DNA of 64,000 bases from Thermodesulfobacteriota bacterium. Its GTDB lineage: Bacteria; Desulfobacterota_D; UBA1144; Nemesobacterales; Nemesobacteraceae. The notes beneath the pieces were generated by a model that worked only from the letters and a program-made list of their open reading frames with translations, ran no database searches and was not told the origin of the DNA. The DNA lies in the NCBI GenBank assembly GCA_965202785.1, contig OZ241855.1:1280001-1344000 (forward strand), read 5' to 3'. Both the position numbers and the translations under genes were made by a program. This document shows positions 30,222 through 57,956 of the stretch, in pieces. Each line of letters begins with the position of its first letter. The stretch's first letter is position 1.

Positions 30222-30255
30222 CAGATTTGACTATACTTCGACTGAAATATACAAT
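30222..30255 (+). promoter_or_regulatory. Sigma70-type promoter with shared CAGATTTGACTATA motif
   Basis: TTGACT-N17-TACAAT; the motif recurs near 41969, 46622(-), 48950(-), 51564 and 54480. Confidence 0.7.
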
Positions 30256-30308
30256 TTTTGGAACTGGCTGGTACTTAACTTAACGCTGGATAAGCGGAGA
30301 TAGCATCA

Positions 30309-31352
30309 ATGAATCCAAACCCAAACATGCGCAAGGATGAAGCATTGCTTTATCCATTTCCGGAGGGCTGGTATTTTGTCGCCAGCCGCAAGATGATTGA
30401 AAAAAAAGGACTCCTGAAGAGAACTTGGCTTGGAGAACAGATTGTTGTCTGGTGCAACGGGGAGGGGGAAGTTTGCGTTGCTGAGGCGGTCTGTCCGCAT
30501 CTTGGAGCCGATCTTAGTCCTGAGGTAGGGGGACGGGTACGCAACGGTTGCCTCGTATGTCCTTTTCACGGTTTCCAGTTTGATGTAAGTGGTCAATGCG
30601 TGGCGACACCTTTCGCTCCTCCGCCAAAAACTGCCAAGCTGAAGGTGTTCGAGACACGTGAAATCGAGGGTCTTATCTTTGGTTGGTGGGGCAGCGGCGG
30701 TCGAGAACCTCAATGGCACCTGCCCGAAATTTCCACGACGGATACCGATTGGAGCGGGATGGAATTCTGCCACCTCCGTTTCCCGGGACATCCCCAGGAA
30801 ACTACCGAGAACTCCGTGGATGTTGCACATCTTAACTATGTGCACCACTACGACAGTGTGAACATTGTCGGTTCGGTATCAATTGACGGCACCTTGCTCA
30901 GGAACTCCTTCAATTTCAAACGTAGCCTTACAGTTGCTGGCATCAAGCTTTTCGAGTACGACGTTTCCGCGGTCGCCAGTATACACGGGCTTGGCTATTC
31001 AATTGTCGAGGTTCACGAACATTCGATCAACATGGACACCCGCCTGTGGGTGCTTGCAACACCGATTGATGGCAAATTTATTGAAATGACGTTGGTGAGC
31101 CAAGTGAGGCAACTTCGTAATCCGAAGGGACTGGGCCACGGGCTGCGACTCCTTCCCCTAGGACTCAGGACCCGCCTCATGAACAAGGTTCTCATTTCCT
31201 CCCAAGAGCATGACGTCATGCAGGATGTCGTCATCTGGAGCAACCTGAAACATCGGTCACTTCCGAGGCTTTGCAGTGTTGACGGCGATATCGGGAAGTA
31301 TCGGCGCTACTGCAGGCAGTTCTATCCGGATGGCCAGTATTATAATCCCTAG
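30309..31352 (+). CDS. Rieske oxygenase of the steroid-acting KshA/Neverland-like group
   Basis: PFPEGWY, CPHLGADL, CPFHGFQF, ENSVDVAHLNYVH, QDVVIW, DGDIGKYRRYCRQFY. Confidence 0.82.
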   Translation: MNPNPNMRKDEALLYPFPEGWYFVASRKMIEKKGLLKRTWLGEQIVVWCNGEGEVCVAEAVCPHLGADLSPEVGGRVRNGCLVCPFHGFQFDVSGQCVATPFAPPPKTAKLKVFETREIEGLIFGWWGSGGREPQWHLPEISTTDTDWSGMEFCHLRFPGHPQETTENSVDVAHLNYVHHYDSVNIVGSVSIDGTLLRNSFNFKRSLTVAGIKLFEYDVSAVASIHGLGYSIVEVHEHSINMDTRLWVLATPIDGKFIEMTLVSQVRQLRNPKGLGHGLRLLPLGLRTRLMNKVLISSQEHDVMQDVVIWSNLKHRSLPRLCSVDGDIGKYRRYCRQFYPDGQYYNP

Positions 31353-31428: not shown

Positions 31429-33759
31429 CTATGCGGTTGAGCCTCTCAATCGTTCCCTGATCTGCTCGCTGGTTTCCTTGGTTTCGTCAAGCAGCATGAG
31501 AAGCGGTGGAAGGAAGAAAAAATCTGCCAGTAGAGCAATAATTACCGTTATTCCTACCAAAAGACCGAGCACTTGGTTTCCCACCACCCCGGATGCTCCG
31601 AACACCATAAAGCCAAGCCCAAACACTATGGTAGTTGTAAACAGTGCCCTGCCCACAAAGCGAAAAGCTATTTGAACGGACTCCGAAGGCAGTTTCCCCG
31701 CTTTTCTGCTATCCGTATATTTTGTCATGAAGTGGATCGTGTCGTCCACGATGATGCCGAATGCTATAGCGGTGACGACCGCCGCCGGAACTCCTACCTC
31801 TCCGACCAAGTACCCCCACAGTCCCATGGCCATAGCGGCCGGAAGGAAATTGGGGATCAAACTGACCAGCCCCAGGCGTATGCTTCTGAATATGGCGAAC
31901 AGCAGCAGGGAGACGATGGCCATCGCCACAAAAGTTCCCTGCAACATATTTTCAATGTTCCTCTGAATCGAATGAGCCCCCACAATCGAAATTCCCGTAG
32001 CGCCGGTTTCCATGCTGGGGGCATTCTGCCGCAGCCATGCACGTGAACGATCGTCAAGATCGATCTTCTCCTTGCTGGACATGCTTTTCACTGAGACCGT
32101 TACGCGTGTTGATCTCCGGTCATGGTCGATCAGATTGTTAAGGTCGCGGCCTATCGGGAGAGAAAATTCGTAAAGCAAAAGGTACTGCGCGGCAAGTTCG
32201 GGGTCGTCGGGAAGCGCGTAGTAATCCGGGTTATCGCCATGCAGGTTCTTGTTCAGACGCTTCATGATGTCGGCAATTGAGAAGATATGGACAAATTCCG
32301 GTTGCTCCCGGTACCAATCTGCAAACGCTTCGACCTGTTTTAGGTATTCTATGTCCGTTACGGCGCCTTCACGGCCGGAATCGAGAGAGTACTCATAGGT
32401 CTCCACGCCAGGGAAATTCTCGCTCAGAAAATCTGCGGATTGCCGGAACTCGTAACTCTCATCGAGAACCTCAAGCCAGTTCTCCCTGAGTTCGATTTTG
32501 GAGATGCCGACAACCAGAAAGACAGTCAGAATGCCGGAGAAGCACAGAAGGATCGTACGATAGGAGATGACAAAACGGCTGAGACGATCGAAAAAATCCT
32601 GTTTGTTTTCGGGCATCTTCCTGGGACGAATGGGTAATATTGACAGGAATGCGGGCAATAGGGTTACCGAAAAGACAAAAGCGCACATGGAACCGAACGC
32701 CACGATGTTGCCCATGACCTTAAACGGCGGCATATCTACGAAATTCAGGCTCAGAAATCCGATTGCAGTTGTGAACGAGGTAAGGAAAATAGGCCACACG
32801 TCCACTCGCACGGCATGGATTGCCGCTTCTGTTCTCGTCATGCCCTGGCGTAAGCCCCCGGCCATTGCCTCAATAATGTGCACGGAGTGAGCGACGGTCA
32901 CAGCCATCAGTACAAACAGCGCTGCACCGCTTTCACCAAACAGCTTTGAGCCTGTCCACCCGGCAAAGCCCAGCGCGGATGTGATGACGGCAAAAATCAT
33001 CAGCACGATCGCAAGTGTTCCCCATATCGAACGTATCAGGACCAAGGCGACAAGCAGCATGGTTCCAAGAGCAATGGGCCCAAGGATGGCCGTTTCATCG
33101 TCAAGTGCGTCACCTATGACACGATTGAGAATGAGTTCACCTAAAAGATGGTAGTCGATGGATGTGTATTTCTCCCGGGCGTCGGCAGCAGTTTCATACA
33201 GATAGTCGGTAACTTCTCGCTTAGCCGTTTCCCGATTTTCATCAGGAAGCGCAATACTGACAACCAGACCTGCAACTCGTCCGTCACGGGAAAAGAATCT
33301 TCCGGCAATTTCCTCAGTATCGAATGCGATATCCCTGATTCGTTCTATATCGGCGTCGCTCAGGGAATCGGCTTCGTCGATAAGCGGCTCAACAACCAGC
33401 TCGTCTTCAAACCCCTCGCTATGCGTATAGTTTGAAATAGAATCGACGCGGGTGGCGTACGGGGTGCGCCAAAGCTGCTCAGTCAGCTCTTCAATGGCAA
33501 CAAGCGTTTCCCGTGTGAAAATGGTGCCGTTATGTGGCGCCATGGCAACCAACGCAACATCGGATAGTGCATATGTCTCTTCAAGCTGTTCGAGTGCAAC
33601 GAGGTGTGGGTCGGATTCATTAAAGTGATTATGAAAGTCTACATCCACCACAATCAAGCGCGTGGCTCCCGCGGCAAGGGCCAGCATAACAAGCAAAGAG
33701 ATCAAAATGGTCAGCCAGCGACGGGTGACGATCGTCGAGATACAGGGTTCCAAGTTCAT
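31429..33759 (-). CDS. MMPL/RND-family transporter
   Basis: Two-repeat RND topology, LTSFTTAIGFLSL, YLLLYEFSLP.G.DLNN, GIIVDDTIHF. Confidence 0.9.
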   Translation of the reverse strand: MNLEPCISTIVTRRWLTILISLLVMLALAAGATRLIVVDVDFHNHFNESDPHLVALEQLEETYALSDVALVAMAPHNGTIFTRETLVAIEELTEQLWRTPYATRVDSISNYTHSEGFEDELVVEPLIDEADSLSDADIERIRDIAFDTEEIAGRFFSRDGRVAGLVVSIALPDENRETAKREVTDYLYETAADAREKYTSIDYHLLGELILNRVIGDALDDETAILGPIALGTMLLVALVLIRSIWGTLAIVLMIFAVITSALGFAGWTGSKLFGESGAALFVLMAVTVAHSVHIIEAMAGGLRQGMTRTEAAIHAVRVDVWPIFLTSFTTAIGFLSLNFVDMPPFKVMGNIVAFGSMCAFVFSVTLLPAFLSILPIRPRKMPENKQDFFDRLSRFVISYRTILLCFSGILTVFLVVGISKIELRENWLEVLDESYEFRQSADFLSENFPGVETYEYSLDSGREGAVTDIEYLKQVEAFADWYREQPEFVHIFSIADIMKRLNKNLHGDNPDYYALPDDPELAAQYLLLYEFSLPIGRDLNNLIDHDRRSTRVTVSVKSMSSKEKIDLDDRSRAWLRQNAPSMETGATGISIVGAHSIQRNIENMLQGTFVAMAIVSLLLFAIFRSIRLGLVSLIPNFLPAAMAMGLWGYLVGEVGVPAAVVTAIAFGIIVDDTIHFMTKYTDSRKAGKLPSESVQIAFRFVGRALFTTTIVFGLGFMVFGASGVVGNQVLGLLVGITVIIALLADFFFLPPLLMLLDETKETSEQIRERLRGSTA

Positions 33760-34352: not shown

Positions 34353-34380
34353 GATGCGGGTTCGAGTCCCGCCAACCGCT
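34353..34380 (+). other. tRNA 3'-end fragment (Gly-like), possible att site
   Basis: GATGCGGG-TTCGAGT-CCCGC-CAACCGCT is a perfect T arm plus 3' acceptor strand, with no matching 5' half or CCA. Confidence 0.65.
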
Positions 34381-35399
34381 TATATGGTTTCTTCGAAAGA
34401 CTCCCCTGGATAGAACTGCTGATACCACTTGCGCATTTTGTTCAGAAGAACAACGTCATCTCCCTTGATCTCCGGAGGGAAGGATTTCTGGTAAATCTTC
34501 CTTTTCCATATCTCCATGTCCTGCTGGTATTGCCAGATCCAGTTCCTAACCACGAAGGAAGGAAGTATTCGCAGTACACGCCGGGGGGCGAACCACCGGA
34601 AATTCACTTGTTGCCGAAGCGCTTCAAGGGGAGTATGCGTCTGGAACATTATTATCTCACCGATTCTCGGAAGGTTGAACTCGAATTTTATAACGCTCCC
34701 GGGACCGAGAAGGGTAACCAGCACCTGGGACTTCACGCTCTCGTAAGCCCGGCCTTTTATCTTAAGCGTTGACTCGACTCTGAGATAGGCAACATGCTCA
34801 AGCGTGTCATCGAGAAACCACGACGGCTTGTGTCGAACTTTTAGCCAGGGCAGCTTTATGTTTATCCAGGGGATGATGCCGGTTCCGTGGATATGAAAGA
34901 AATGACTGAAATCTACGGTGTTCTCGGCAAATTCTATAATGTGCATTTCCGCATCCAGGCTGTACTGACCGCGGTGAACCAGCTGCCGGCTGTCGATCTT
35001 CGGCTCAGCCGGCAGCTGGTACGGCGGCTGCTTGCCTTGCGCTGAATGATAAATCATGACCATGCCGTAGTGCTCGATCACTTCCCAGTGCCGATGAACG
35101 AGCTCGGTGTAGGATGACGGATTGCAGACCCTGCCTTCTCCGTTCAGTTGCCACCCGTGAAAAGGACATTGCAGCAAGTCCCCCTTGACTTCACCATAGG
35201 CCAGGTTTGCTCCCAAGTGCGGGCAGAATGCGTCTAAAGCCGAAAGCCGGCCGGTTGTCCGGCTGCGAAACAGGGCGATTTGCTCCCCCAGGCATTGAAC
35301 ATGCTTTACTTTTCCCGGTTTGATTTCCCTGGATGCCGCTATCCTGTACCAGCCGTCTGGAAACGGCGGCGGGTAGGTCTGTTCTCTCGCTTTATCCAT
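34380..35399 (-). CDS. Rieske oxygenase, Neverland/DAF-36 (cholesterol 7-desaturase)-like
   Basis: YPPPFPDGWY, CLGEQIALFRS, DAFCPHLGANL, CPFHGWQ, HIIEFAENTVDFSHFFHIH, QTHTPLE, QDMEIW, RKWYQQFY. Confidence 0.82.
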   Translation of the reverse strand: MDKAREQTYPPPFPDGWYRIAASREIKPGKVKHVQCLGEQIALFRSRTTGRLSALDAFCPHLGANLAYGEVKGDLLQCPFHGWQLNGEGRVCNPSSYTELVHRHWEVIEHYGMVMIYHSAQGKQPPYQLPAEPKIDSRQLVHRGQYSLDAEMHIIEFAENTVDFSHFFHIHGTGIIPWINIKLPWLKVRHKPSWFLDDTLEHVAYLRVESTLKIKGRAYESVKSQVLVTLLGPGSVIKFEFNLPRIGEIIMFQTHTPLEALRQQVNFRWFAPRRVLRILPSFVVRNWIWQYQQDMEIWKRKIYQKSFPPEIKGDDVVLLNKMRKWYQQFYPGESFEETI

Positions 35400-35429
35400 G
35401 TTTTTTTCTCCTTATGGGCTACGGAAGCA

Positions 35430-35893
35430 AAGCCATCTGCCTACCCCGCTTCCCTTGCGGGGCTTTCCCCCGACATAGGTTTCATCAGCTTCTACTATCC
35501 CTGCAGCAGTCCGGTTTCCTTCGTCTGTTCCGCCGCCATCTGGGCACGGATACGCTGTTGCATAAACCACGCTGTTTTCTGATTGAGTTCTAAATCACGG
35601 GCAAGCTGGCAACTGGACAGGCTTTTATTTGCGTTTACGATAAGCCCTATGGCGAGAAACCATTTCTGAAGGGGAATCTTTGTCTTTTCAAAGATAGTGC
35701 CGGAAAGTACATTGAAGCTTGACTTGCAATCGTGGCAGTTCCAACGGCCTATCCGGTTGCCGTCATGCTTACGGGCAACTTTGACGCTTCCACAGTGCGG
35801 GCAAGAGGGCGTGTCCTTAAACCGGATGTCCTCAAGGTGCTCTATGCAAGCTTCTTGGTCTGGGAACCTCTTGAAAATCTTGATTAAATTCAT
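35430..35893 (-). mobile_element. IS1595-family transposase N-terminal remnant (frameshifted, truncated)
   Basis: Zn ribbon CPHC...CHDC, GTIFEKTKIPLQKWF, QKTAWFM; after a frameshift IVEADETYVGGKPRK; upstream TTGACA-N17-CACAAT. Confidence 0.88.
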
Positions 35894-42866: not shown

Positions 42867-42907
42867 CGACTTGCCGCACCTCCTGGAACCGGGATGCCGG
42901 GGCTGTC

Positions 42908-44302: not shown

Positions 44303-44435
44303 GGCCTCTTAATTTGCTTGTCCATTATAGCACTCTGTCAGCCGGGTGTAAAACAAGGGTGAACAGACATTAGGAGGAAGCCCATAGCTGAAATTCGATC
44401 CCCGCTACGTCAATATCTTCAGGGACCGTGGCACA

Positions 44436-46809: not shown

Positions 46810-48828
46810 TCAGACGGGCAGTTCGCGTTTCTGTTCGGCGATATGAAATTTAAGCTTCTTGTTCGGCTTCATTGATGGAAACGCGGCGATCCCGAGCTTA
46901 TAGTCTTCTGGGTATACGCGAAGGGTAAAGTAATGCGCTATGATCAACAGGTTGACAGCCATATGAAGTGTCATCCACCGGGCGCCGAGGCACGTGTGCG
47001 GGCCCAGTCCGTATGGGGCGTATCCGGGTTTTCTATGCTCATTGCGAGGCGGCAGGTAGCGGTCGATATCAAATGAAAGAGGATCCGGGAAGGAATCTTC
47101 CATATAGTGCGGGGCGGTCTGTGCGATGTTTATTCTGGACCCCCGCAGTATTTCATAGCCCTCGACCGTGAACGTATTCACGACGTCACGCATAGTCATT
47201 GGAACAACCGGGTACACTCGAAGGCATTCATTGATGAAGCGGTCGGTGACTTCTATGTTGGCGGGAGAGAAGTCTTTTCCGGTTGGATCACCGTTTGAAA
47301 ACAGTGCGTCGGCTTCACTTCGAATTTTGTCGTAAAGCTCAGGGTGTGACGCCATGGCATAAAGGGCGAAGTTAAAGCCGTCACCCAGGTACATGCTGGC
47401 AAGCACCACTGCCGATAGAGCGAAACTCAGATTCGACTCGGGCATCAATAGCGGGTAGTTCGCATTGAGGCTTAGCAGATCATCCACGAAGTTTCGCGGA
47501 CAACCGGCCCGTTGGGCTGATGTATGGACACTTTGTACCCGCTCCATCAAAACGCCTATGGCCTTGGCCCTGCGTTTCATTCCCGGTGTTTTCAGCATGA
47601 ATTTTGGCAGGATGTTTAAGAGATGGGTGCTGAGTGCCCGCTCCTTGTAGGCAATTATATCGTCCATGATATCCTGCGTATCAATACTCATGGATAGAGA
47701 TGACATCTGAGCGTTAATCATTTTTCGGCACAGATCCCTTGCAGGATAGCTTTCGCCCACTTTCCAATTTGCCATGTATTCGCGAGCCTTGCTGTAGACC
47801 ACATCGATCTGTCCTTCCAGTCTCCCGCGGGAGTAGGCTGGAGTCATGGTTTTTCGATACCGGAAATGGTCTGCGCCATCCAGGGCAGGCAATATGCCTA
47901 CCGCCCCATACACTTTCTCAAAGTCGCCAAAGAGATTCTTGGATGTCAGGTACTTCCGTCCGTGTCGACGTACCCAGTGGTTTATTTCTGGTCCGGAAAG
48001 AAAAATATTTGGCTTTGAAAAAGGAGGAGCGATTTCAAAGACCGGGCCGTACTGCTTTGTCAAATCCGCAAAAAGTGCCGGAAGGTTCCCGGTACGAGCA
48101 TGTGGGTTGAGCAGTAGCCGATGAAGTGAAACGCGCGGGATTTTCTTGCTGACATGAGAAGTTGCAAGCAGCGGATTATTGATGTTTTCTTTGACCGCAT
48201 CCGCCATTGAACGGCCGATTAGGTCCATCCTGCAGATAAGCTCGATCCGCTCTTCCGCCTTTTTGTCGAGCTTAAACATTAGGGGAAAGATATCGCATGT
48301 CTCGATCAGGCAAATGATGATAATATCTCGCGGATCCGGAATGTCGTCTGAAAAGATGTCTTTGCCGACTCTGATTCTGATGAACTGACTTAAACTTGCA
48401 TCTTCATCGTCGCCGTTTACATCCGCGTACAGTTTGCCAGCTGCCACTGTCCAGAAATCACCCTGGTGATGTTCCAGAATTCCCATATTAACCAGATTCT
48501 CTAAGGTCAAATCAGTGATTGTTTCCGCATGGCTGATGAGCTTTTCAATCCAGTATTGGGCGTTGTGCTTAACTGGCTCATCGACGATTTCCTTGAGAAT
48601 TATGTCCAAGCTGGGGTTGCCCGTTTCTGTTGGGTCCAGGAGGAGAAGAGACTCGACATCTGTGTCGATACGAGAAAGCAGAGAGAGTTCCGCGAGTGCC
48701 GCACCGATAATAGCGCAGTTCATTTTGTGGGCGGCTATTTGGTAGAAGTAACCGCTCTCCTCGTCGAGGAGCATCAGTATGAACTCGTCGAGCAAGCTCA
48801 GTGGCTGGCTCTCAATAGGATCATTCAT
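46810..48828 (-). CDS. GPP34-domain-cytochrome P450 fusion (copy 2)
   Basis: Same length (672 aa) and near-identical to copy 1; YGLGPHTCLG heme motif. Confidence 0.85.
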   Translation of the reverse strand: MNDPIESQPLSLLDEFILMLLDEESGYFYQIAAHKMNCAIIGAALAELSLLSRIDTDVESLLLLDPTETGNPSLDIILKEIVDEPVKHNAQYWIEKLISHAETITDLTLENLVNMGILEHHQGDFWTVAAGKLYADVNGDDEDASLSQFIRIRVGKDIFSDDIPDPRDIIIICLIETCDIFPLMFKLDKKAEERIELICRMDLIGRSMADAVKENINNPLLATSHVSKKIPRVSLHRLLLNPHARTGNLPALFADLTKQYGPVFEIAPPFSKPNIFLSGPEINHWVRRHGRKYLTSKNLFGDFEKVYGAVGILPALDGADHFRYRKTMTPAYSRGRLEGQIDVVYSKAREYMANWKVGESYPARDLCRKMINAQMSSLSMSIDTQDIMDDIIAYKERALSTHLLNILPKFMLKTPGMKRRAKAIGVLMERVQSVHTSAQRAGCPRNFVDDLLSLNANYPLLMPESNLSFALSAVVLASMYLGDGFNFALYAMASHPELYDKIRSEADALFSNGDPTGKDFSPANIEVTDRFINECLRVYPVVPMTMRDVVNTFTVEGYEILRGSRINIAQTAPHYMEDSFPDPLSFDIDRYLPPRNEHRKPGYAPYGLGPHTCLGARWMTLHMAVNLLIIAHYFTLRVYPEDYKLGIAAFPSMKPNKKLKFHIAEQKRELPV

Positions 48829-49179
48829 CAGCCGGCGCCTCCTTCAATCTGAATCCGTGGCGCGGTAATGGTTACAGGAAATTGTAAAACCTACAATCAT
48901 AGTTCCTAACATTGAAACTGTATATTCCGACCGTGATATAGTCAAATCTGCTGTATGTTGAATAAGACCGGAGTTTAGACTCATGAGTCTTTGAATTTAG
49001 ACTGAAGAGATACCGAAGACTTGAATTTGCGAAAAATTCCAAACACTACCCTTCTATATAACATGATATATAATCTATATGCTACGAATATTATTTAAAT
49101 TCCAGTGTCGTGTGTTATTGGTCTTTTCTGTGACCGTATCCATAAGTGACCGCTTCACTGCAGGAAGGGGGATTCTGTT

Positions 49180-50319
49180 ATGATTGAATGGCTTGGTATT
49201 AGCCACCTTTTTGAGCTTTCCCAGAGGGAAGCGATTGCGGGGTTTTTCACCCCGCTGGTGATTTTTGCCGTGTTTTTCCTGGCGCAGATTATACTGCCTG
49301 GAAGATGGGTTCCTGGCTACGTCATCAATCCGGAGACCGGCGAGCCCCGCAAGTATAGGCTGAACGGTCTTTTGGTATTCGCGGTTGCGCTGATCGTGTG
49401 GGCTTTCGAGCTTACCGGCATGCCGCGTGAGTGGTTCTACCGGTCCTCGATCTATGCCGTGGTTGGCGGAACAGTTTTTACCACAATCTTTGCGATCATA
49501 GCGGTCTTCAGTCAGCCGCAAGGCAAGATAAAGAACCCGCTTCTGGCGCTTTGGGACGGGCGGGCGCAGGAGATGTCGTTCTTCAACGAGCGCTTCGATG
49601 TGAAGATGTATTTCTATGTTGTCGGCGGGACGATGCTGGCGCTCAACGCCTTGTCCGGAGCCGCATACAACTATGAACTCTTTGGCGAGAACTACAATCC
49701 GGGCGTTTTCCTGTATGCGGCATTCTACACATACTACATACTGGATTACTTTATCTTTGAGCGCGTCCAGCTATATACCTACGATCTGATCCATGAGGGC
49801 ATCGGCTTCAAAATGTTCTGGGGAGGCCTCGTGATCTACGGGTGGCTGTTTATCCTCCCGTTGTGGGGCATGGCTGCTTACCCGTCTCCCGGATTCTCGT
49901 CGGCGTGGACGTATGTCTGGCTAATCGGAACGCCTGTGCTGTTCCTGTTCGGGTGGGGCATCTCGCGCGGCGCTAACATGCAGAAATACACATTCAAGCG
50001 ATGGCCCGACCGCAAATTTCTCGGGATCATCGAGCCTGAGTACATCCAGGCCGGCGACCGCAAGATCCTGTGCAGTGGCTTCTGGGGTGCCGCTCGCCAC
50101 TTCAACTACCTGGGCGAAGGCTTCCTTGGTCTTTCAATTGCCCTGGCATTCGGCTACTTCACTAATCTCTGGGCGTGGACCTACTTTATCTTCGTCGTAA
50201 CGTTTTTTACCTTCCGTCAACGTTTTGACGATGCATACTGTGCCGAGAAATACGGCGCCGAAAAGTGGGCGGAGTATCAGGCACGGGTGAAATACCGGAT
50301 TTTTCCCGGCATTTATTGA
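49180..50319 (+). CDS. ERG4/ERG24-family sterol reductase (divergent)
   Basis: YRLNGL, YDLIHEGIGF, GANMQK, LCSGFWGAARHFNYLGE, DDAYCAEKYG, YRIFPGIY. Confidence 0.88.
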   Translation: MIEWLGISHLFELSQREAIAGFFTPLVIFAVFFLAQIILPGRWVPGYVINPETGEPRKYRLNGLLVFAVALIVWAFELTGMPREWFYRSSIYAVVGGTVFTTIFAIIAVFSQPQGKIKNPLLALWDGRAQEMSFFNERFDVKMYFYVVGGTMLALNALSGAAYNYELFGENYNPGVFLYAAFYTYYILDYFIFERVQLYTYDLIHEGIGFKMFWGGLVIYGWLFILPLWGMAAYPSPGFSSAWTYVWLIGTPVLFLFGWGISRGANMQKYTFKRWPDRKFLGIIEPEYIQAGDRKILCSGFWGAARHFNYLGEGFLGLSIALAFGYFTNLWAWTYFIFVVTFFTFRQRFDDAYCAEKYGAEKWAEYQARVKYRIFPGIY

Positions 50320-50403
50320 GGAGATTTCCTGCGAGTCCATACAGGGTGATTACGATCGCCGCCTGCCCGCATTGTGCTTGAGTTGTACAGATTACTCTAC
50401 GGG

Positions 50404-51405
50404 TCAACCCGGTTTGCGCGCCTTGTGGTAGTACATGGGCGTAACAATTCCCAGACGTCCTGCGGCCAGGAGGCTGTCGGCCACGACATTAATAATTTTC
50501 CGTGCCTCGGACGACCCCTTGGGTACGGCGCGCACGCCTTCCAGAACGGGCAGAACCGCCGCGGCGATTTTGCGGCCAAGGGCCGTTCTCGAGAAACTTC
50601 TCAGATTCAGGCTGCCCCCTTCCAGCGGTCCATACCACGGCGTCTTGGGGTCGGCGTCAAGAGCGCGGTCATGCGCCTCGACAAGTTCGAAACCGACTGC
50701 CCGCAGACTGTCGTCTACCTCCGTGAATGAAGCGATTTCCGGAAGAGCGGAGACGTATTCGTTTATTTCCTTGAGTTCCCGGTGCTTGGGGTTTCCGCCG
50801 TCGTAAAGCGGGGTCGTGCACACGTCGTAGCCGACGAAGACCGCACCGGGGCGCAATACGCGGAATATCTCGGCAAAGGCTGCGGTCTTATCCGGCGCAT
50901 GACACAAGGCCTCGATATGGTAGGCCGCGTCGAAACTTCCGTCTTCCGCCGGTATATTCAGGAAATCGCCGTGCAGGACGCTGCAGAGATCGTCCAGGCC
51001 AGCCTCGCTGTTATACGCAGAGCACTTCCCGAGCTGATATTTGTTGATGTTGAGGCCCACGATTGAAGCGCCGAACTTTCTTGCGAGGGAGCGCTGGGGT
51101 CCACCCACGCCGCACCCGACATCCAGCACCTTCATACCCGGTCTCAATCCAATGGCTTCGCCCAGAAAATACTCATGGTTGGCAATGGATTCCTCGAAAG
51201 ACACCCCCGGCTCCATCAGTGCGAAGTGAATCGACTGTCCCCATCCACGCTCGCAAAATTCGGTAATGAGATTATAAAACGCCGTTACCGTGTTGGCGTA
51301 CTCTTCCTTGCTCATCCCCTGGCTTCTGCGGTACTTCGATAGCCTTTCCACAATATCATCCCGCTGAACTGCATTTGAAGCTGAGTTATGGGAGTCATCT
51401 GCCAC
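50404..51405 (-). CDS. Sterol C-24 methyltransferase-like protein, diverged copy
   Basis: FCERGWGQSIHFA, LDVGCGVGGP, IEALCHAP, LRPG, GIVTPMY. Confidence 0.85.
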   Translation of the reverse strand: MADDSHNSASNAVQRDDIVERLSKYRRSQGMSKEEYANTVTAFYNLITEFCERGWGQSIHFALMEPGVSFEESIANHEYFLGEAIGLRPGMKVLDVGCGVGGPQRSLARKFGASIVGLNINKYQLGKCSAYNSEAGLDDLCSVLHGDFLNIPAEDGSFDAAYHIEALCHAPDKTAAFAEIFRVLRPGAVFVGYDVCTTPLYDGGNPKHRELKEINEYVSALPEIASFTEVDDSLRAVGFELVEAHDRALDADPKTPWYGPLEGGSLNLRSFSRTALGRKIAAAVLPVLEGVRAVPKGSSEARKIINVVADSLLAAGRLGIVTPMYYHKARKPG

Positions 51406-51636
51406 TTGCGTTTTCCTCTGTAGAATCTTCTATATGAAAGATTCCTTATCACTTTCTGATTTTTCTTCTAAGTTTTGGGAAACCATCTTATCCACTCTAC
51501 ATAAGGGGGTCAAAAACATTTTTTGGATCGCCAAGCCCGCTTCTTTCTGAACCTCAATAAAACCAGATTTGAATATAATTCCGGTTCAAGACTTGGAACG
51601 CGGGAATTTAGGTTACTATATTCCTAAGTAAAAGGC

Positions 51637-52998
51637 TTGCGCACTAGCATCATGTTATCTGAAAAGACCCAGCGCCGAATTCTCAAAAATCCGTTCACCG
51701 CACCCGGTGGGGGCGGCAAGAGCGTTCCGGCTTCACTTCTCCCAGCGATTTTAGCGGTGGTGCTGTGGGTGCTTGTTTCAGTGCTCCCGACCGTAGCGTA
51801 CCCGGCCGGCTTCACCGACGAGGTTGATATCTCCGGGCGCCTCTCGACTGAGGCTTGGCTGTATCCCCAGAGTGCCGAGTATCCTGACCAGCGTTCATAT
51901 GCTGGCGGGCTTGCACTTGAGACAACGTTCTATGTTGAGAGCGAGGAAGGCACAAGCATAACGGTGACTCCCTTTTTGCGGTACGATGCCGGGGACCCGG
52001 ACCGCACGTACGGTGATTTCCGTGAGGCCTATCTGCTTATGTACGGCGATATTGGCAACGGCGAATGGGAATTGCGTCTGGGCATCGATCGGGTCTTTTG
52101 GGGCGTCACGGAACTGCGTTCCCTGGTGGATATCATCAATCAGACCGATGTTATTGAACACCCGAACGAAAAGATAAAGATGGGTCAGCCAATGGCCCAT
52201 CTCACCTGGTCGGGTGACTGGGGAGCACTGGAATTTTTCGCGACGACATGGCACCGTGCGCGCACCTATCCGGGCCCGCGTGGTCGCCAGCGGTATGAGT
52301 TCATTGTGGACCAGGATATGGTTTCATACGAATCCGGCGCGAAAAAGTGGAATATTGATCTTGCCAGCAGGTACAGCGGCTTATTAGGGCCGCTCGAGAT
52401 TGGTCTCAGCGTGTTCAACGGTACGAACCGAGAGCCCACACTCTTGCCGATATTTCTCGACTCCAGATTGGTTCTGGCCCCACATTACGAGAAGATTCGC
52501 CAATTCGGTGTGGATGCCCAGCTTACAAGGGGGTCCCTGCTGCTCAAGCTGGAAGCAATCTACCGCGCTGGCGCGAGGAACAGCAGGTACATTCAACACC
52601 TCAATACTTTAGAGGAAGAGGACTACACGGCTTTTATCTTGGGTAGCGAGTACACGCTCTATTCCATATTGGGTTCGAACTCTGATCTGGTCCTGTTTGC
52701 CGAATGGGCTTACGACGGACGTGGCCGGTGGGCAACCAATGCATTCGAGAACGACCTGTTCATTGCCGCGCGTCTCGGGTTGAACGATCCGCATGGCACC
52801 GAATTTGTCATCAGCGTTTTAGGTTCCCTCAACAAGAGCAGTCGCGTCCTCGCAGGCGAGTTCAAACGTCGCCTTTCTTCGGACAACTGGCTTCTGCATA
52901 TTGAGACCTCAGCTTTTCTGGATATTGACGAAGACGACTTCATATACTACGTGCGGCGCGACAGCTACGTAAAGATCAATCTAGCCTACAGTTTCTGA
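51637..52998 (+). CDS. Putative outer-membrane beta-barrel protein associated with RND/LolA-like genes
   Basis: Signal-like segment, DFREAY, GIDRVFWG, LVDIINQTD, terminal LAYSF; start uncertain. Confidence 0.7.
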   Translation: MRTSIMLSEKTQRRILKNPFTAPGGGGKSVPASLLPAILAVVLWVLVSVLPTVAYPAGFTDEVDISGRLSTEAWLYPQSAEYPDQRSYAGGLALETTFYVESEEGTSITVTPFLRYDAGDPDRTYGDFREAYLLMYGDIGNGEWELRLGIDRVFWGVTELRSLVDIINQTDVIEHPNEKIKMGQPMAHLTWSGDWGALEFFATTWHRARTYPGPRGRQRYEFIVDQDMVSYESGAKKWNIDLASRYSGLLGPLEIGLSVFNGTNREPTLLPIFLDSRLVLAPHYEKIRQFGVDAQLTRGSLLLKLEAIYRAGARNSRYIQHLNTLEEEDYTAFILGSEYTLYSILGSNSDLVLFAEWAYDGRGRWATNAFENDLFIAARLGLNDPHGTEFVISVLGSLNKSSRVLAGEFKRRLSSDNWLLHIETSAFLDIDEDDFIYYVRRDSYVKINLAYSF

Positions 52999-53272
52999 AT
53001 CGAACCAGAACCTGAAAGCAACTCGACAGTGACTTTTTAGTACTTGCCTTGTCAGAGTTGCCGAGACGCGAAACGTGGGTCAATTGAGGCGGTGTCCGAA
53101 TACGGATTGAGGTTTTTCATGAGAGTGGCAGGAAATATGTTGTCATAGGGCGGAACGGTTCTGTCTATGTGTGGTCTGCTTTGTCAGGTAAATAATCACG
53201 TAAAGATGCGCAAGTGATACCGGCAATTTTATCCGGACTATCGGGCCAATGACTTGGCCGAGGGAAACACGA

Positions 53273-54274
53273 ATGGCGGCTAACTTCCATAACCCAATTT
53301 CGAAAGCAATTCGGCCGGAGGACACGGCGGAGACGCTGTCGAAGTACCGCAGAAGCCAGGGCCGGGGCAAGAAAGAGTACGCTCGCATGGTGACGGCGTT
53401 TTACGACCTCGTTACCGACTTTTATGAGTATGGATGGGGACAGTCGTTTCACTTCGCACCGATGAAGGTAGGGGAGTCTTTCGAGGAATCCATTGTCGGC
53501 CACGAGCATTTTCTCGGCGAAGCCATTGGATTGAGACCGGGTATGAAGGTGCTGGATGTCGGATGCGGCGTGGGAGGACCCCAGCGCTACCTCGCAAGAA
53601 AGTTCGGCGCTTCGATCGTGGGCCTAAACATCAGCGAATATCAGATCGGGAAGTGCTCTGCGTATAACAGCAAGGCTGGCCTGGACGATCTCTGCGGCGT
53701 CCTGCACGGCGATTTCCTGAATATACCGGCGGAAGACGGAAGCTTCGACGCGGCCTACCATATCGAGGCCATGCCTCATGCGCCCGATAAAGCCGCCGCC
53801 TATGCCGAGATATTCCGCGTATTGCGCCCCGGTGGGGTCTTCGCCGGCTACGACTGGTGCATGACCCCGCTTTACGACGGCGCAAACCCTGAGCATCGGG
53901 AACTCAAGAAAGGAATCGAATATGGCAACGCTCTTCCCGAAATCGCCTCATTCACGGAGGTAGACGACAGTCTGCGGGCAGTCGGTTTCGAACTTGTCGA
54001 GGCGCATGACCGCGCTCTTGACGCCGACCCCAAGACGCCGTGGTATCGACCGCTGGAAGGGGGCAGTCTGAAGCTGAGGAGTTTGCCGAGAACGGCCCTT
54101 GGCCGCAAAATTACCTCGGTAACCCTGAGCGTTCTGGAAAGCTTACGCGCCGTACCCAAGGGGTCGTCCGAGGTACGGAAAATTCTCAGTATCGCGGCCG
54201 ACAGTTGCGTGGCCGCAGGACGTCTTGGGATTTTTACGCCCATGTACTACCACAAGGCGCGCAAACCGGATTGA
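53273..54274 (+). CDS. Sterol C-24 methyltransferase (ERG6/SMT-like)
   Basis: FYDLVTDFYEYGWGQSFHFAP, LDVGCGVGGP, IEAMPHAP, YDWCMT, IEYGNALP, GIFTPMY; ATG 53273 gives 333 aa, same as its paralog. Confidence 0.92.
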   Translation: MAANFHNPISKAIRPEDTAETLSKYRRSQGRGKKEYARMVTAFYDLVTDFYEYGWGQSFHFAPMKVGESFEESIVGHEHFLGEAIGLRPGMKVLDVGCGVGGPQRYLARKFGASIVGLNISEYQIGKCSAYNSKAGLDDLCGVLHGDFLNIPAEDGSFDAAYHIEAMPHAPDKAAAYAEIFRVLRPGGVFAGYDWCMTPLYDGANPEHRELKKGIEYGNALPEIASFTEVDDSLRAVGFELVEAHDRALDADPKTPWYRPLEGGSLKLRSLPRTALGRKITSVTLSVLESLRAVPKGSSEVRKILSIAADSCVAAGRLGIFTPMYYHKARKPD

Positions 54275-54531
54275 CCCGTACGGTAATCGGGTCCAACGCA
54301 AGCACGATGCGGGCCTGCGGCGACTGTGTCGGTAAGCTGCCAGCCGCGGTCCAATTCGCTCGGTTGCGGTCCTACCTATTCTCCAACGTGTGCCGCTCGA
54401 TATGGAGCAGCACCAAGCCTATATGGAATCGATGTGGAATCGCACAATCAGGCCATTGCTTTATCATGCCCCCATACACCAGATTTGACTATATCTCCGG
54501 TTTTGTTTATATCCATTAACAGGAGGAACCA

Positions 54532-55353
54532 ATGATTCGGTCTTCGATCCCACGCATAATACTTACGGTCCTCGGAAGCTTTCTTGCAATTTGTTTCTGG
54601 CCGGCTGAGTCGTATTCTGATCTGCTGAGTGGTACCGCTGAGGAAGTGGGTCTCAAGGTTGCAACCGAAGCTCGTGAGAACCAGAAGGGTTTCGGCAATT
54701 TCACCGCAAACCTGACCATGACGCTACGTAACAAGCAGGGGAAGGAAACCCAGCGCTCACTCCGTCTCAAACTCATCGAAATCCCGGAGGACGGCGATCG
54801 AACTCTGTTTGTGTTTGACCACCCAAAGGATGTCAAAGGGACCGCTTTTCTCGTCCATGCCCATAAGGAGGGGCCAGACCAACAGTGGCTCTATCTTCCC
54901 GCACTGAAGCGGGTGAAAGGCATCAGCGCCTCGAAACAATCCGGCTCTTTCATGGGCAGCGAATTCTCCTATGAGGACATGGGAGCGGTCGAGGTCGGGA
55001 AATTTACTCACCGGTTCCTTCGTGAAGAGCCCTGCGGTGATCTCAAGTGCCTGGTTCTGGAGCGTATCCCGAAAAGTCAGGATTCCGGGTACTCACGCCA
55101 AGTGGTTTGGCTCGACCGGGAGGAACTTCGAACAATTCAGGTCCACTACTTCGACCGCAGGAATGAGCACCTCAAGACTATGGTCGTAGAGGGCTATGCA
55201 AAATACCTCGATCGGTTTTGGCGGAGCAGCACTATAACGATGACAAACCTGCTGACTGGCAAGAGTACCGTGCTGCTATGGTCAGACTACAAGTTTGGGA
55301 CTGACCTGGACACCAAGGACTTTACCCGAACAGCGCTAAAGCGAATACGGTAG
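54532..55353 (+). CDS. LolA-like outer-membrane lipoprotein-sorting family protein
   Basis: PKDVKGTAFL, DQQWLYLPALKRVK, SFMGSEFSYED. Confidence 0.9.
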   Translation: MIRSSIPRIILTVLGSFLAICFWPAESYSDLLSGTAEEVGLKVATEARENQKGFGNFTANLTMTLRNKQGKETQRSLRLKLIEIPEDGDRTLFVFDHPKDVKGTAFLVHAHKEGPDQQWLYLPALKRVKGISASKQSGSFMGSEFSYEDMGAVEVGKFTHRFLREEPCGDLKCLVLERIPKSQDSGYSRQVVWLDREELRTIQVHYFDRRNEHLKTMVVEGYAKYLDRFWRSSTITMTNLLTGKSTVLLWSDYKFGTDLDTKDFTRTALKRIR

Positions 55354-55583
55354 AGAGGTTTCTAGACTGCCTCGCCCGGTTCACCACCCGCCGGAGTGAC
55401 TGCAACTGAAATTGGGTGAGTATACTACGCAACGAACGGAGAGCTTCCGTAAGTTGGATTGATCAAGCCCATGAAAAACGGCGGAATACCGATGTCCTCG
55501 AACACTCCTACAACCCATGACCCAGAAAGTGGGGATGTGTCCCTTAGTCTTGAGCGCAAGCCAAATTCCCTGTTTTGGCAATA

Positions 55584-57956
55584 ATGAAATTGCTGAGTGA
55601 TATAGAGTCACGGTTGGGCAACTGGGTCATCAAGCTTCGGTGGCCGATCATCGTTGCTGCCATTGTCTTAACCGGGATTGCAACAAGCGGCACGTTGTTG
55701 CTTGAGTTCTCAACCGACCACCGCGTCTACTTTTCCGAAAACAATCCTCAGCTTCTGGCGTACCAGGAGATGGAGGACATGTACGGCAAGAGCGACAACG
55801 TCTTTTTTGCCATCGTGCCGGAGGACCGAGATGCCACATCGTCTCTCGCCCTTGAAGCTACGGAGTGGCTCACCGAAAAGGCTTGGCAGACCCCATTCGC
55901 AAGCCGTGTCGATTCCGTTACCAACTTTCAGCATACCAAAGCCGACGGCGATGAGGTATTGGTGCGTGAACTGGTGGACGAGAGTGCCTACAGCGATGCC
56001 GAAGAGCGGTCACGGATTCGCGAAATTGCCTTGGCGGAACCGGTTCTCGCGGGGCGCCTGCTGGCACGCGACGGCGGTGTTTCGGGAATCAACGTCACAT
56101 TGCAGTTGCCGGGCGAGGACCAAATGCGCGAAGGTGCAGAGGTTGCTGAACACTCACGCAAACTTGCGAATGAATTTCGAGAACGTTTCCCCGGCATTGA
56201 CGTACTGTTGTCTGGAATGGTGATTTTTAACCAGGCCTTTATGGAGGTGTCTCTGGACGATCTTAGGACGCTCATCCCGGTGAGTTTCTTGGCAATGGCG
56301 TTCATGCTGCTGCTTCTGACGCGGGGATTTTCAGGAACGTTCGCAATAATGCTCGTCGTGGTGATGTCGGTAATGACCGCCGTGGGTCTCGGGGGCTGGG
56401 CAGGACTTCCAATGACGTCGCCTTCGGCGGTCTCCCCGGTCGTCGTGCTGACAGTGGCTATTGCCAACTGCGTCCACATCTATTCCACCATTGTCAGCTA
56501 TATGCACGATGCAGCGTCCGGCACGTCTGAGGATCGCGGCAGCAGAACTAGGCAGGATGCGATTGTCGAGTCGATTCGGGTGAACCTTCAGCCGGTCTTC
56601 CTGTCGAGTCTGACTACCACGCTTGGCTTTTTGAGCTTGAACTTCTCCGATTCGCCCCCTTTTCGTCATTTGGGCATCTTCGTTGCATTTGGGGTCGGTG
56701 CGGCATTCGTGCTTTCCGTAACTTTTCTGCCGGCGTTGCTCTCGCTGCTGCCGGTTCGGGTACGCGCATCCCTGTCCCGAGAGAATTCTCTGATAGAAAT
56801 GTTCGGCAGGTTCGTTGTACGCCGAAGCCGCCAACTGCTCTGGGGCTCCGGGCTGATCGTGGTAGTGCTCGTGGCGTCAATTTTCCAGAACGAGCTAAAC
56901 GACGTTTTCCTCCACTATTTTGACGAGAGCGTCGAATTCCGAAAAGACTCTGAATTCATCGTGGATAACCTCACCGGTTTGTATGCCATGGAGTACTCGC
57001 TCCCATCGCGCTCCCCGGGTGGGATCAGCGACCCGGCGTATCTCTCAGATGTCGAAGCGTTTGCCGAGTGGTACAGGGGGCAGCCTGAAACGATACACGT
57101 AAACGTCATCACCGATACCTTCCGACGGCTAAACAAGAGCATGAACGGGGGCGATCCGGACTATTACCGGCTACCCACAGACCGGGAACTTGCCGCGCAG
57201 TATCTGCTTCTCTACGAAATCTCTCTACCCTATGGCCTTGATCTGAACAACCAGATCGCCGTCGACAAGTCAGCCACCCGGATGATAGTGAGAACGCGGA
57301 CGCTCTCTTCAAACGAAGTGATCGCACTTGATCAGCGCGCGCAGCAATGGCTCGCAGGCCACGGGCCGAATATTTCCGGTCCGGTGAGTGCCGGTACCAC
57401 GTTGATGTTTGCCAATCTCGGTCGGCGAAATATCATCTCCATGCTTGCTGGAACCACGCTCGCCCTCGTTGGAATTTCTTTCATCCTCATCTTCGCACTG
57501 CGATCATGGCGACTCGGAATAACGAGCATGGTCCCAAACCTGATTCCCGGGGCATTGGGCTTCGGTATATGGGGTTTGACAGTCGGAGAAGTGGGAGTAT
57601 CACTTTCGATGGTAACGGCCATGACATTGGGTATCGTGGTCGACGATACTGTCCACTTTCTCAGCAGGTACAAGCGGAACCGGCACGAACTCGGTTGCAC
57701 TTCTCCTGAAGCGGTACTGGTTTCCTTCCGAACCGTGGGTCAGGCACTGCTTACGACCTCGCTTGTGCTAGTGGCAGGCTTTGTTGTGGTGAGTTTTTCC
57801 AATTTCGAACTCAATTCAGCGATGGGCAAGCTCACAGCGCTTGTAATCACTTTGGCCCTGATGGCCGATTTCCTTCTCCTGCCGCCGCTTCTCATGAAGT
57901 TCGACGCGAATGCTGACGGCGCCTGCCTTCTTTCGGAAATGGTAACCAAGGCGTGA
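55584..57956 (+). CDS. MMPL/RND-family transporter (paralog of 31429-33759)
   Basis: LSSLTTTLGFLSLNF, YLLLYEISLPYGLDLNNQ, GIVVDDTVHF. Confidence 0.9.
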   Translation: MKLLSDIESRLGNWVIKLRWPIIVAAIVLTGIATSGTLLLEFSTDHRVYFSENNPQLLAYQEMEDMYGKSDNVFFAIVPEDRDATSSLALEATEWLTEKAWQTPFASRVDSVTNFQHTKADGDEVLVRELVDESAYSDAEERSRIREIALAEPVLAGRLLARDGGVSGINVTLQLPGEDQMREGAEVAEHSRKLANEFRERFPGIDVLLSGMVIFNQAFMEVSLDDLRTLIPVSFLAMAFMLLLLTRGFSGTFAIMLVVVMSVMTAVGLGGWAGLPMTSPSAVSPVVVLTVAIANCVHIYSTIVSYMHDAASGTSEDRGSRTRQDAIVESIRVNLQPVFLSSLTTTLGFLSLNFSDSPPFRHLGIFVAFGVGAAFVLSVTFLPALLSLLPVRVRASLSRENSLIEMFGRFVVRRSRQLLWGSGLIVVVLVASIFQNELNDVFLHYFDESVEFRKDSEFIVDNLTGLYAMEYSLPSRSPGGISDPAYLSDVEAFAEWYRGQPETIHVNVITDTFRRLNKSMNGGDPDYYRLPTDRELAAQYLLLYEISLPYGLDLNNQIAVDKSATRMIVRTRTLSSNEVIALDQRAQQWLAGHGPNISGPVSAGTTLMFANLGRRNIISMLAGTTLALVGISFILIFALRSWRLGITSMVPNLIPGALGFGIWGLTVGEVGVSLSMVTAMTLGIVVDDTVHFLSRYKRNRHELGCTSPEAVLVSFRTVGQALLTTSLVLVAGFVVVSFSNFELNSAMGKLTALVITLALMADFLLLPPLLMKFDANADGACLLSEMVTKA

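Follow-up and report, generated by a model that had tools for sequence, protein, structure and literature searches.

A conserved gene island predicted to tailor and traffic exogenous sterols in a streamlined bacterium with no detected sterol cyclase

Gene clusters with sterol methyltransferases (SMTs) have been described in uncultured symbionts, including a Chlamydiae SMT without a de novo pathway, and the methylation of host sterols has been put forward as an idea (PMC10070321, Brown et al. 2023). The discussion of that paper treats the makers of the sponge sterol precursors as unsettled. An ERG24-CYP51-LSS cluster under purifying selection was reported in 115 of 537 metagenome-assembled genomes (MAGs) from 10 phyla of Ircinia symbionts (PMC9531527, Kelly et al. 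2022). GPP34_L proteins were presented as a hallmark of sponge symbionts with a proposed role in phagocytosis (PMC11706023), and BstABC are the sterol transporters of Methylococcus capsulatus (PMC10942540). Dadabacteria have been said to possess a eukaryote-like full sterol pathway with squalene synthase, cyclase and ERG25-27 (PMC8237579). Here, a gene island at positions 30222-57956 of a 64,000-nucleotide stretch of bacterial DNA (the window) is described, in which SMTs, Rieske oxygenases, GPP34-P450 fusions, a flavoenzyme and an ERG4/ERG24 reductase stand beside candidate lipid transporters. The gene content suggests, with a probability of roughly 70%, that the window bacterium tailors and traffics exogenous sterols in its envelope.

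The window occupies positions 1,280,001-1,344,000 of a genome that consists of a single contig of 1,643,464 bp, estimated to be 95.97% complete. A profile search of the whole genome with SQHop_cyclase_C, SQHop_cyclase_N, SE and SQS_PSY returned 0 matches, FA_hydroxylase gave none above its cut-off in the whole genome, and the epoxidase-cyclase fusion of a Binatia MAG (locus L053) found no match in the genome as a tblastn query. The preliminary description of this DNA had listed no epoxidase or cyclase in the window, and scans of its open reading frames (ORFs) bore this out. Among 41 relatives, which comprise 24 congeners, 16 genomes from the order's other genera and the window's own genome (G000), none gave a match to the cyclase C-terminal domain (0 of 41). 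The domain was likewise missing from all 120 phylum genomes searched (0 of 120, again counting G000), of which 94 were at least 90% complete. The bacterium is predicted to be unable to make, epoxidise or cyclise squalene. Since there is no de novo route, the sterol scaffold must come from outside, and the scavenging proposed in the preliminary description survived the genome-wide search for cyclase and epoxidase.

All families named in the preliminary description were recovered in their places by Pfam scans of the window ORFs. SMT1 (50404-51405, minus strand) and SMT2 (53249-54274, plus strand) score 52.6 and 70.3 bits on Sterol_MT_C (PF08498, cut-off 21.7 bits). A third, SMT3 (75 bits), overlaps a Rieske gene, Rieske C, about 13 kb before the window (G000:C1:1265110-1267198) and joins the two SMTs noticed before. 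All three carry a class I S-adenosylmethionine (SAM) methyltransferase domain together with Sterol_MT_C. The steroid-type assignment of Rieske A (30309-31352, plus strand) and Rieske B (34380-35399, minus strand) was confirmed by the presence of both the Rieske and the KshA_C domain in these non-haem iron oxygenases, and Rieske B is of an SMT-adjacent type. Two GPP34-P450 fusions of 672 aa were likewise confirmed by Pfam, copy a (44436-46454, minus strand; p450 133 bits, GPP34 87 bits) and copy b (46810-48828, minus strand; p450 and GPP34), as was the FAD enzyme (42908-44302, minus strand; Amino_oxidase). This flavoenzyme belongs to the amine-oxidase/phytoene-desaturase superfamily, with LkcE as the best PDB match (E 2.5e-22). 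Two reductases had been claimed, and both are present. ERG4b (49180-50319, plus strand; Pfam 110 bits; PDB 4quv, E 5e-32) is a divergent ERG4/ERG24 reductase of the conserved island, while the second, ERG24a (9165..10265, plus strand; 230 bits; PDB 4quv, E 3.3e-65), is an intact enzyme of the delta-14 type that belongs to a decaying ERG24-CYP51 cluster and not to the island. The two are 29% identical, and both combine PF01222 with similarity to the solved delta(14)-sterol reductase 4quv. In total, the genome encodes three SMTs, three Rieske/KshA_C proteins of this kind, two ERG4/ERG24 reductases, two P450s, one flavoenzyme and two RNDs of the RND1/RND2 type, and these genes all lie within about 73 kb.

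The Binatia MAG places these enzymes in context. One 20-kb stretch of L053 holds a Rieske A-like gene, a GPP34-P450, a flavoenzyme, three SMTs, an ERG24 and a Rieske B/C-like gene. The same stretch holds a 1269-aa squalene epoxidase-oxidosqualene cyclase fusion, a CYP51 (PDB 6mcw, E 2.6e-107), an SdmB-like short-chain dehydrogenase/reductase (SDR; 309 bits, NF052578) and a full-length SdmA-like Rieske/VanA_C protein (417 bits, NF052579). Identities to the window proteins are 60% for Rieske A, 39% for the P450 fusion, 76% for the flavoenzyme, 71% for ERG24a and 60-74% for Rieske B/C; transport parts are absent from the L053 cluster. The window enzymes are assigned to sterol metabolism because their L053 homologues have an epoxidase-cyclase fusion, CYP51 and SdmAB as neighbours, and the sterol nature given to them in the preliminary description is upheld by this context. 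As an observation in its own right, the L053 fusion (13470-17279, minus strand) is a single 1269-aa frame with FAD_binding_3/SE at the N-terminal and SQHop_cyclase_N and SQHop_cyclase_C at the C-terminal end. A 1226-aa frame with a cyclase domain lies around 577678-578655 of contig C1 in a Pseudomonadales MAG (G004).

Conservation of the neighbourhood was counted over 80 SMT-centred loci. The order TPR protein, flavoenzyme, GPP34-P450, ERG4b, SMT1, barrel, LolA-like protein and RND2 is kept in 15 of the 80, at 75-98% amino acid identity, and the core recurs in other phyla. This indicates that the gene set, whose conservation across MAGs had been named as a check, is not a chance grouping. SMTs occur in 17 of 24 congeners and ERG4b-type reductases in 16 of 24, and none of the 16 genomes from the order's other genera has an SMT. 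RNDs of the RND1/RND2 types occur in 17/17 SMT-positive and 1/7 SMT-negative congeners, a descriptive count from kin that are not independent. Pairwise ratios of nonsynonymous to synonymous substitutions (dN/dS) ranged from 0.08 to 0.55, with most island genes at or below 0.3; genes cut by locus ends gave no value. The values were 0.08-0.12 for the flavoenzyme, 0.09-0.13 for ERG4b, 0.08-0.26 for the LolA-like protein, 0.15 for RND2, 0.16-0.29 for the barrel, 0.18-0.39 for the P450 fusion, 0.21-0.55 for SMT1, 0.16-0.46 for the TPR protein and 0.16-0.26 for ERG24a. Two ordinary neighbours gave 0.10-0.18 (acyl-CoA dehydrogenase 0.16-0.18, response regulator 0.10-0.12). The island genes are under purifying selection.

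For the cross-phylum comparison, five further genomes with an SMT were used, of which four are labelled Alphaproteobacteria and one 'bacterium'. Each encodes a full-length GPP34-P450 with 43-60% identity, and partners were counted within 10 kb of it. Four of the five genomes have an RND1-type gene there (48-72% identity), a LolA-like gene beside the RND (54-70%), an SMT and a Rieske A-type gene (59-67%). The flavoenzyme (68-75%) and the barrel (54-63%, in the L176 and L178 cassettes) are present in two genomes each, and a TPR protein and an ERG4/24 in one each. In the fifth genome the fusion is accompanied by an SDR alone. Gene content that is kept while gene order differs is the usual signature of functional coupling, and the transport link suggested earlier is supported by RND, LolA-like and barrel genes tied to the enzymes across phyla. 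A cyclase-domain match is absent from three of the four cassette-bearing genomes and present in 3 of 10 genomes reached through loci, whose completeness is not told.

The candidate transport proteins were analyzed individually. RND1 (31429-33759, minus strand) and RND2 (55575-57956, plus strand) are MMPL/HAE3-type proteins with 124 and 101 bits on Pfam MMPL and 23.6 and 38 bits on Sterol-sensing (cut-off 22.3); they are 40% identical, and RND2 occurs in 13/24 congeners. Assignment to NCBIfam HAE3, HpnN or BstA was rejected, all scores being far below the cut-offs (31 bits on BstA against 1400, 81-95 bits on HpnN against 752). The LolA-like protein (54532-55353, plus strand; Pfam LolA_like 201 bits) has a signal-like N-terminus and is a candidate periplasmic lipid carrier. 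The barrel protein (51637-52998, plus strand), weakly DUF1302-like, is predicted by AlphaFold2 as an all-beta outer-membrane beta-barrel with a mean pLDDT of 91.6. Its Foldseek matches are porins and AlgE at TM about 0.4-0.5. The barrel family comprises 1944 representative clusters at E up to 0.001, mostly without a Pfam assignment, and DUF1302 matched only 6 of 64 members. The TPR protein (42075-42866, plus strand; Pfam TPR) has an N-terminal hydrophobic signal-like segment, is kept beside the flavoenzyme in congeners and has a 49% homologue in the L178 cassette; it gave no match to BstC or the TatT family. The two MMPL/RND, LolA-like, outer-membrane and TPR proteins of the preliminary description were all found again, the barrel by its predicted structure. 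The transport proteins lie outside the BstABC and HpnN families yet would act alike, and by analogy with HpnN and BstA outward transport is taken as the default.

The source of the window is a streamlined bacterium whose DNA recurs in sponge metagenomes. Among named public genomes, the nearest loci belong to MAGs that bear the title Candidatus Dadabacteria or Thermodesulfobacteriota and have chromosomes of 1.5-2.4 Mb. For the habitat comparison, the 16-kb stretch 42000-58000 was divided into 30 bins and compared with four runs at a likeness cut-off of 85%. In two sponge-metagenome-labelled runs from two studies, contigs 85-99% alike covered 30/30 and 29/30 bins. Contigs of two RNA libraries (one sponge sample, one coral sample) covered 29/30 bins. 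Runs X7, X8, X10-X21 and X23, with word shares below 0.2, were left out of the habitat evidence. The segments uncovered in single runs (53748-54281 in X22, 45738-46271 in X6 and 55884-56417 in X9) were given no meaning, and a joint from 53022 to 54464 in X3 was discarded, its shorter side being only 26 letters.

A mechanism can be proposed from these parts. Sterols from the host, or from co-resident, cyclase-bearing symbionts that produce them, would reach the inner membrane. SAM-, NADPH- and O2-dependent enzymes would then tailor the sterol at the cytoplasmic face of this membrane. The SMTs would alkylate a side-chain olefin, the SMT-linked Rieske enzyme and/or the flavoenzyme with the P450 would introduce or move double bonds or hydroxyls, and ERG4b would reduce the resulting olefin. 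The RND, the LolA-like protein and the barrel would carry sterols across the periplasm between inner membrane and outer membrane. A wider proposal is that a sponge-associated guild of several phyla shares a mobile cassette of RND, LolA-like protein, barrel, SMT, GPP34-P450, Rieske A and flavoenzyme, by which non-synthesisers take sterols of the holobiont, modify the side chains by alkylation and oxidation, and then place or return the sterols. This wider proposal is tentative, and the odds are rather against it.

The GPP34-P450 fusion invites a different explanation. Copies a and b are 93% identical and are the sole P450 genes of the genome. In most relatives there is a single P450 copy, and the barrel and LolA-like genes have no SMT between them. 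In X3, X6 and X9, contigs join across the duplicated P450; the single P450 and the missing SMT in most relatives indicate that the window's strain recently amplified both genes. The architecture is that of GPP34_L, an N-terminal GPP34 followed by a C-terminal P450, and both domains are present in 100% of the members of the nearest Atlas clusters. The fusion occurs in 20/24 congeners, full-length in 19 and as a contig-edge fragment in one. Its GPP34 domain gave no match against all PDB chains (phmmer, E up to 1). A CYP51 identity of the fusion was rejected, the best PDB match being a CYP51 at only E 9e-19, against 2.6e-107 for the CYP51 of L053. It has been proposed that such fusions, which are reported as exclusive to sponge symbionts and for which Dadabacteria appear in the published table, bind phosphatidylinositol 4-phosphate (PI4P) and modulate phagocytosis (PMC11706023), and GPP34 is a strong Pfam match in the fusions. 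The fusion, perhaps even the whole island, could accordingly be a host-manipulation device that binds host PI4P and blocks phagosome maturation. We regard this as unlikely. The fusion has no signal-like N-terminus. It lies within about 0.5 kb of the flavoenzyme, which is 68-76% identical across phyla, in 17 of the 19 loci (of 80) that have both, and at 1.2-2.4 kb in the other two. It also stands beside SMT, RND and LolA-like genes across phyla and inside the cyclase-bearing sterol cluster of L053, and the word sterol does not occur in the text available of PMC11706023. The two explanations can be combined, for example if a modified host sterol altered the phagosome membrane.

The SMTs were compared further. 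SMT2 and SMT3 are 93% identical and SMT1 and SMT2 78%; SMT2 is read as a recent copy of SMT3. The database relatives of SMT2 are 333 aa long, so its start is probably 8 codons further in. The SMT tree contained 88 rows, 85 from 79 of the 80 loci and three from the window's genome; high-scoring segment pairs covering less than 80% of the query or containing stops were left out. The Dadabacteria-type SMTs form one clade of 20 rows (SH-aLRT 99) adjoining Alphaproteobacteria-labelled rows. This single supported clade indicates that SMT1 and SMT2/3 split by duplication inside the lineage. The motif YE[YF]GWG, which we take to mark Region I (sterol binding) of SMTs, is present in SMT2 and SMT3 and not in SMT1 or the 14 other SMT1-type rows. 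These 15 rows read FCE[RQL]GWG..SIHF, and nearly all others FYE[YF]GWG..SFHF. A preprint assigns roles to Y81 and F83 and reports that tyrosine at yeast position 81 affects successive methylation (Brown and Welander 2025). A changed specificity of SMT1 is plausible, because its Region I is altered and yeast Y81 has this role. The same preprint reports that glycine at yeast position 249 is needed for propylation. In the column inferred as yeast 249, mapped without the yeast sequence, SMT2 and SMT3 have N and SMT1 has S. As side observations, glycine stands in this inferred column in SMTs of L053, L063, L065, L066, L070, L072-L075 and L077, which are from Binatia-, Dehalococcoidia- and Acidobacteriota-labelled MAGs and, for L075, a Thermodesulfobacteriota-labelled one. 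The loci L020, L023 and L075 have second SMT-like genes beside ordinary SMTs, very divergent and on long branches, with a Region I of FMQFGWNESLHF or similar. No solved ERG6/SMT structure was matched by sequence, the best matches being generic methyltransferases, and none of the assayed Aplysina aerophoba SMT contigs of the Brown and Welander preprint was among the 80 metagenome loci returned.

Outside the island, the surroundings of ERG24a are recognisable as a decayed steroid gene cluster. An SdmA-like relic, of the C-4 demethylase type of Rieske protein (8713..9154, plus strand), retains the C-terminal 145 residues without a Rieske domain and is frameshifted near 8903-8908. In tblastn with the L053 protein, residues 212-273 (57%) and 273-355 (61%) matched in two frames, and the first 211 are missing. 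ERG24a follows, and then a CYP51 (sterol 14-demethylase) N-terminal stub of 43 residues (10282..10410, plus strand; 59% to residues 32-75 of the L053 CYP51), the rest being deleted. The window thus holds a degenerate copy of ERG24-CYP51-LSS and not three intact genes in order. The SdmA-like relic is also found in G012 and G015. In G015 the same slot contains the SdmA relic, an ERG24 (93%) and an intact CYP51 (73%), then UbiA-UbiX-UbiD-MqnE, and in G016 an intact CYP51 adjoins ERG24; both genomes have no cyclase. In G007 CYP51 survives as a C-terminal fragment and ERG24 is interrupted by a stop codon, and G012, with a CYP51 fragment, resembles the window. The ERG24a type is intact in 4 of 25 genus genomes, the window's included. 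The relics and the intact congener copies indicate that the lineage once had the nuclear demethylation steps. The losses began with the cyclase end, followed by SdmA and then, in some species, CYP51. As a separate observation, the intact CYP51 frames (G016:C1:492692-494047 and G015:C6:2043-3389) are 612 and 557 aa long against a 489-aa query and may contain an extra domain. After the CYP51 stub, UbiA, UbiX, UbiD and MqnE (aminofutalosine synthase, 449 bits, above cut-off) are encoded at 10677-15102 on the plus strand, and the organism makes its menaquinone by the futalosine route.

ERG24a lies directly upstream of these menaquinone genes. This position, the non-canonical Region I of SMT1, and the breadth of the ERG4/ERG24, class I methyltransferase, P450 and Rieske oxygenase superfamilies would fit enzymes that act on a self-made non-sterol isoprenoid or another lipid. 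This is improbable. Sterol_MT_C is above cut-off in all three SMTs, sponge-metagenome relatives of the SMT family methylate desmosterol in vitro (PMC10070321), and homologues of five enzyme types lie beside the epoxidase-cyclase fusion, CYP51 and SdmAB in L053. Deletion of CYP51 and of the sequence behind it accounts for the adjacency of ERG24a and the menaquinone genes.

The relics also raise the question of whether the island as a whole no longer functions and is a leftover, itself heading for deletion, from a de novo pathway since lost, as the SdmA-like and CYP51 relics, the broken ERG24a-type gene of G007, the seven of 24 congeners without SMT and the IS1595 fragment inside the region might suggest. 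The evidence makes this very improbable. All island ORFs are intact with dN/dS like that of ordinary neighbours, SMT and P450 were recently duplicated, synteny is kept in 15 loci, and the relatives' genes appear in RNA-library contigs. A genome of 1.64 Mb would also be expected to leave little room for dead genes.

The Rieske oxygenases are the point of contact with steroid degradation. Rieske B and Rieske C are 67% identical and Rieske A and Rieske B 30%. Among PDB entries, Rieske A matches KshA best (E 2.4e-23), and Rieske A orthologues are 58-67% identical in the cassettes of other phyla. An SdmA identity of Rieske A, B and C was rejected with the NCBIfam equivalog NF052579 (cut-off 600 bits, full length), on which they scored 33, 59 and 59 bits with N-terminal matches only. 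In 12 of 80 loci an SMT and a Rieske B-type gene are separated by 8-47 nucleotides, and 11 of these 12 pairs share a strand. The nearest Atlas clusters of Rieske B include a 'cholesterol 7-desaturase family' at rank 9, and a Neverland-like delta-7 desaturation by the Rieske B-type enzyme is only a lead. That sterols serve as a carbon source, with P450/Rieske side-chain oxidation feeding the beta-oxidation operon after RND2 (acyl-CoA dehydrogenase, 3-hydroxyacyl-CoA dehydrogenase, enoyl-CoA hydratase and thiolase, 59551-63601), is hardly credible in spite of the KshA match, because methyltransferases and reductases build sterols and do not degrade them, the KshB-type reductase domain (NAD_binding_1) is absent from the genome, the cassettes of other phyla lack the beta-oxidation genes, and no degradation genes, ring-cleavage genes included, are found among the scanned window ORFs, as the preliminary description had said of ring cleavage (no genome-wide 9,10-seco search was made).

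Several points weigh against tailoring and trafficking of exogenous sterols by the window bacterium. RND pumps of this class are known as exporters. Sterol entry is left unexplained, and Mce-type importers were not searched for. No ferredoxin or reductase gene that could serve as redox partner is found in the island (other reductase families were not searched), and NAD_binding_1 (PF00175, FNR/KshB-type) is absent from the whole genome despite at least four Rieske oxygenases and two P450s. The absence of SMT in 7/24 congeners indicates that the system is dispensable in the genus, and ERG24a may be a relic on its way out. The RNA-library contigs report presence in an RNA library; DNA carry-over is possible, and there is no silent control stretch. 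The genome is 96% complete, short of 100%. The published statement of a full Dadabacteria pathway (PMC8237579) also stands on this side; it was not reproduced in the 120 phylum genomes, with 0 cyclase domains, and other MAGs or mis-binned contigs may explain the conflict.

Some genes in and around the region were judged unrelated to the system. Between 35495 and 41649 lie an IS1595 fragment, a histidine kinase, a periplasmic binding protein, an RsbW-like protein and a response regulator-SpoIIE protein. The IS1595 fragment (35495-35893, minus strand) is a 132-aa ORF with only the zinc-ribbon domain, a mobile-element remnant between the Rieske B and kinase genes. The binding protein at 38854 was rejected as BstB, as it is a Peripla_BP_6 protein of the branched-chain-amino-acid type. 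An NAD-binding and DUF2867 protein (28388-30133) scored only 40 bits as SdmB and was left out of the system. A 3Beta_HSD search gave six generic epimerase-type matches, also present in all 14 control genomes, and was uninformative. As separate observations, at 15172-17559 (plus strand), a 795-aa NB-ARC/STAND ATPase with TPR and weak HEPN similarity has a G+C of 39-45%, compared with about 52-55% around it, and looks like a horizontally acquired defence-type gene. After RND2, two overlapping and poorly conserved ORFs lie at 58073-59241 (minus strand), one with a lipoprotein-like N-terminus and no family, the other with a weak match to a TbpB barrel domain.

The preliminary description had known of no account of this gene combination. 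Its parts are in print, namely the SMT clusters (PMC10070321), ERG24-CYP51-LSS (PMC9531527) and GPP34-P450 (PMC11706023). A literature search that did not extend to subscription journals and supplements found no account of the sterol context of GPP34-P450, of the transport link or of the decay series. Within the same limits, the search returned nothing linking GPP34 with sterols in sponges, nothing linking sterols, LolA and RND in sponge symbionts, and nothing linking Dadabacteria with such a system. The supplements of the three papers list gene clusters and may already show parts of the cassette.

Side-chain alkylated steranes, among them 24-isopropylcholestane and 26-methylstigmastane, are interpreted as the earliest chemical traces of animals. 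The genus carries up to three or more SMTs per genome of 1.3-2.4 Mb and is unable to make the sterol skeleton. Any alkylated sterol that it makes therefore starts from a holobiont sterol, and the question 'symbiont or host?' becomes a testable two-partner pathway with named genes. GPP34-P450, an unexplained hallmark of sponge symbionts, gains a metabolic context, and a second bacterial sterol-trafficking system, distinct from BstABC, is nominated. The stepwise loss of sterol synthesis with tailoring retained parallels the sterol auxotrophy of insects and nematodes. If the wider proposal of a multi-phylum guild were true, the unusual alkylated sterols of sponges and the 'sponge biomarker' steranes would partly be host sterols remodelled by symbionts. 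The Rieske enzyme of the SMT operon would be a side-chain desaturase that regenerates the olefin for each methylation, and the SMT1 clade, whose Region I contains Cys and Arg, would be a methyltransferase of new regiochemistry. GPP34 would then be a lipid-handling or membrane-targeting module for sterol oxidation and not a PI4P effector.

Sterol-modifying enzymes in bacteria that depend on foreign sterols have precedents. Coxiella, an intracellular bacterium that makes no sterols, reportedly has a delta-24 sterol reductase. Sponge chlamydiae have sterol reductases of the ERG4/24 type and depend on eukaryote sterols. These cases involve one or two reductases, whereas the window holds a multi-enzyme island with transporters. 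The closest described clusters share Sterol_MT_C SMTs of uncultured symbionts, often beside Rieske genes called sdmA (PMC10070321). They differ from the present case, in which the whole genus is without a cyclase, the window's genome has neither epoxidase nor squalene synthase, none of the Rieske partners is an SdmA, and transport genes and GPP34-P450 are part of the cassette. The ERG24-CYP51-LSS cluster, whose 5' flank consists of a reductase and a hypothetical gene, has the same order as window 8713-10410, with a 5' hypothetical (here SdmA-like) gene, ERG24 and CYP51 (PMC9531527). The window copy is eroded, with a frameshifted SdmA-like gene, a 43-residue CYP51 stub and no LSS, and Dadabacteria are not mentioned in the main text of that paper. 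The GPP34_L proteins share the two-domain architecture, and Dadabacteria are among their carriers, but here the fusion sits in a sterol-tailoring and transport cassette, and sterols are never mentioned in the published text consulted (PMC11706023). The transport parts resemble BstABC and HpnN as MMPL-type RNDs with periplasmic and outer-membrane partners beside sterol enzymes and a presumed transfer of polycyclic lipids between membranes. They fall outside BstABC, with 31 bits on BstA against 1400 and no PF12974 or PF16811 partner; in place of BstB (PF12974) and the TatT-family BstC (PF16811), the partners in the window are a LolA_like protein and a porin-like barrel (PMC10942540).

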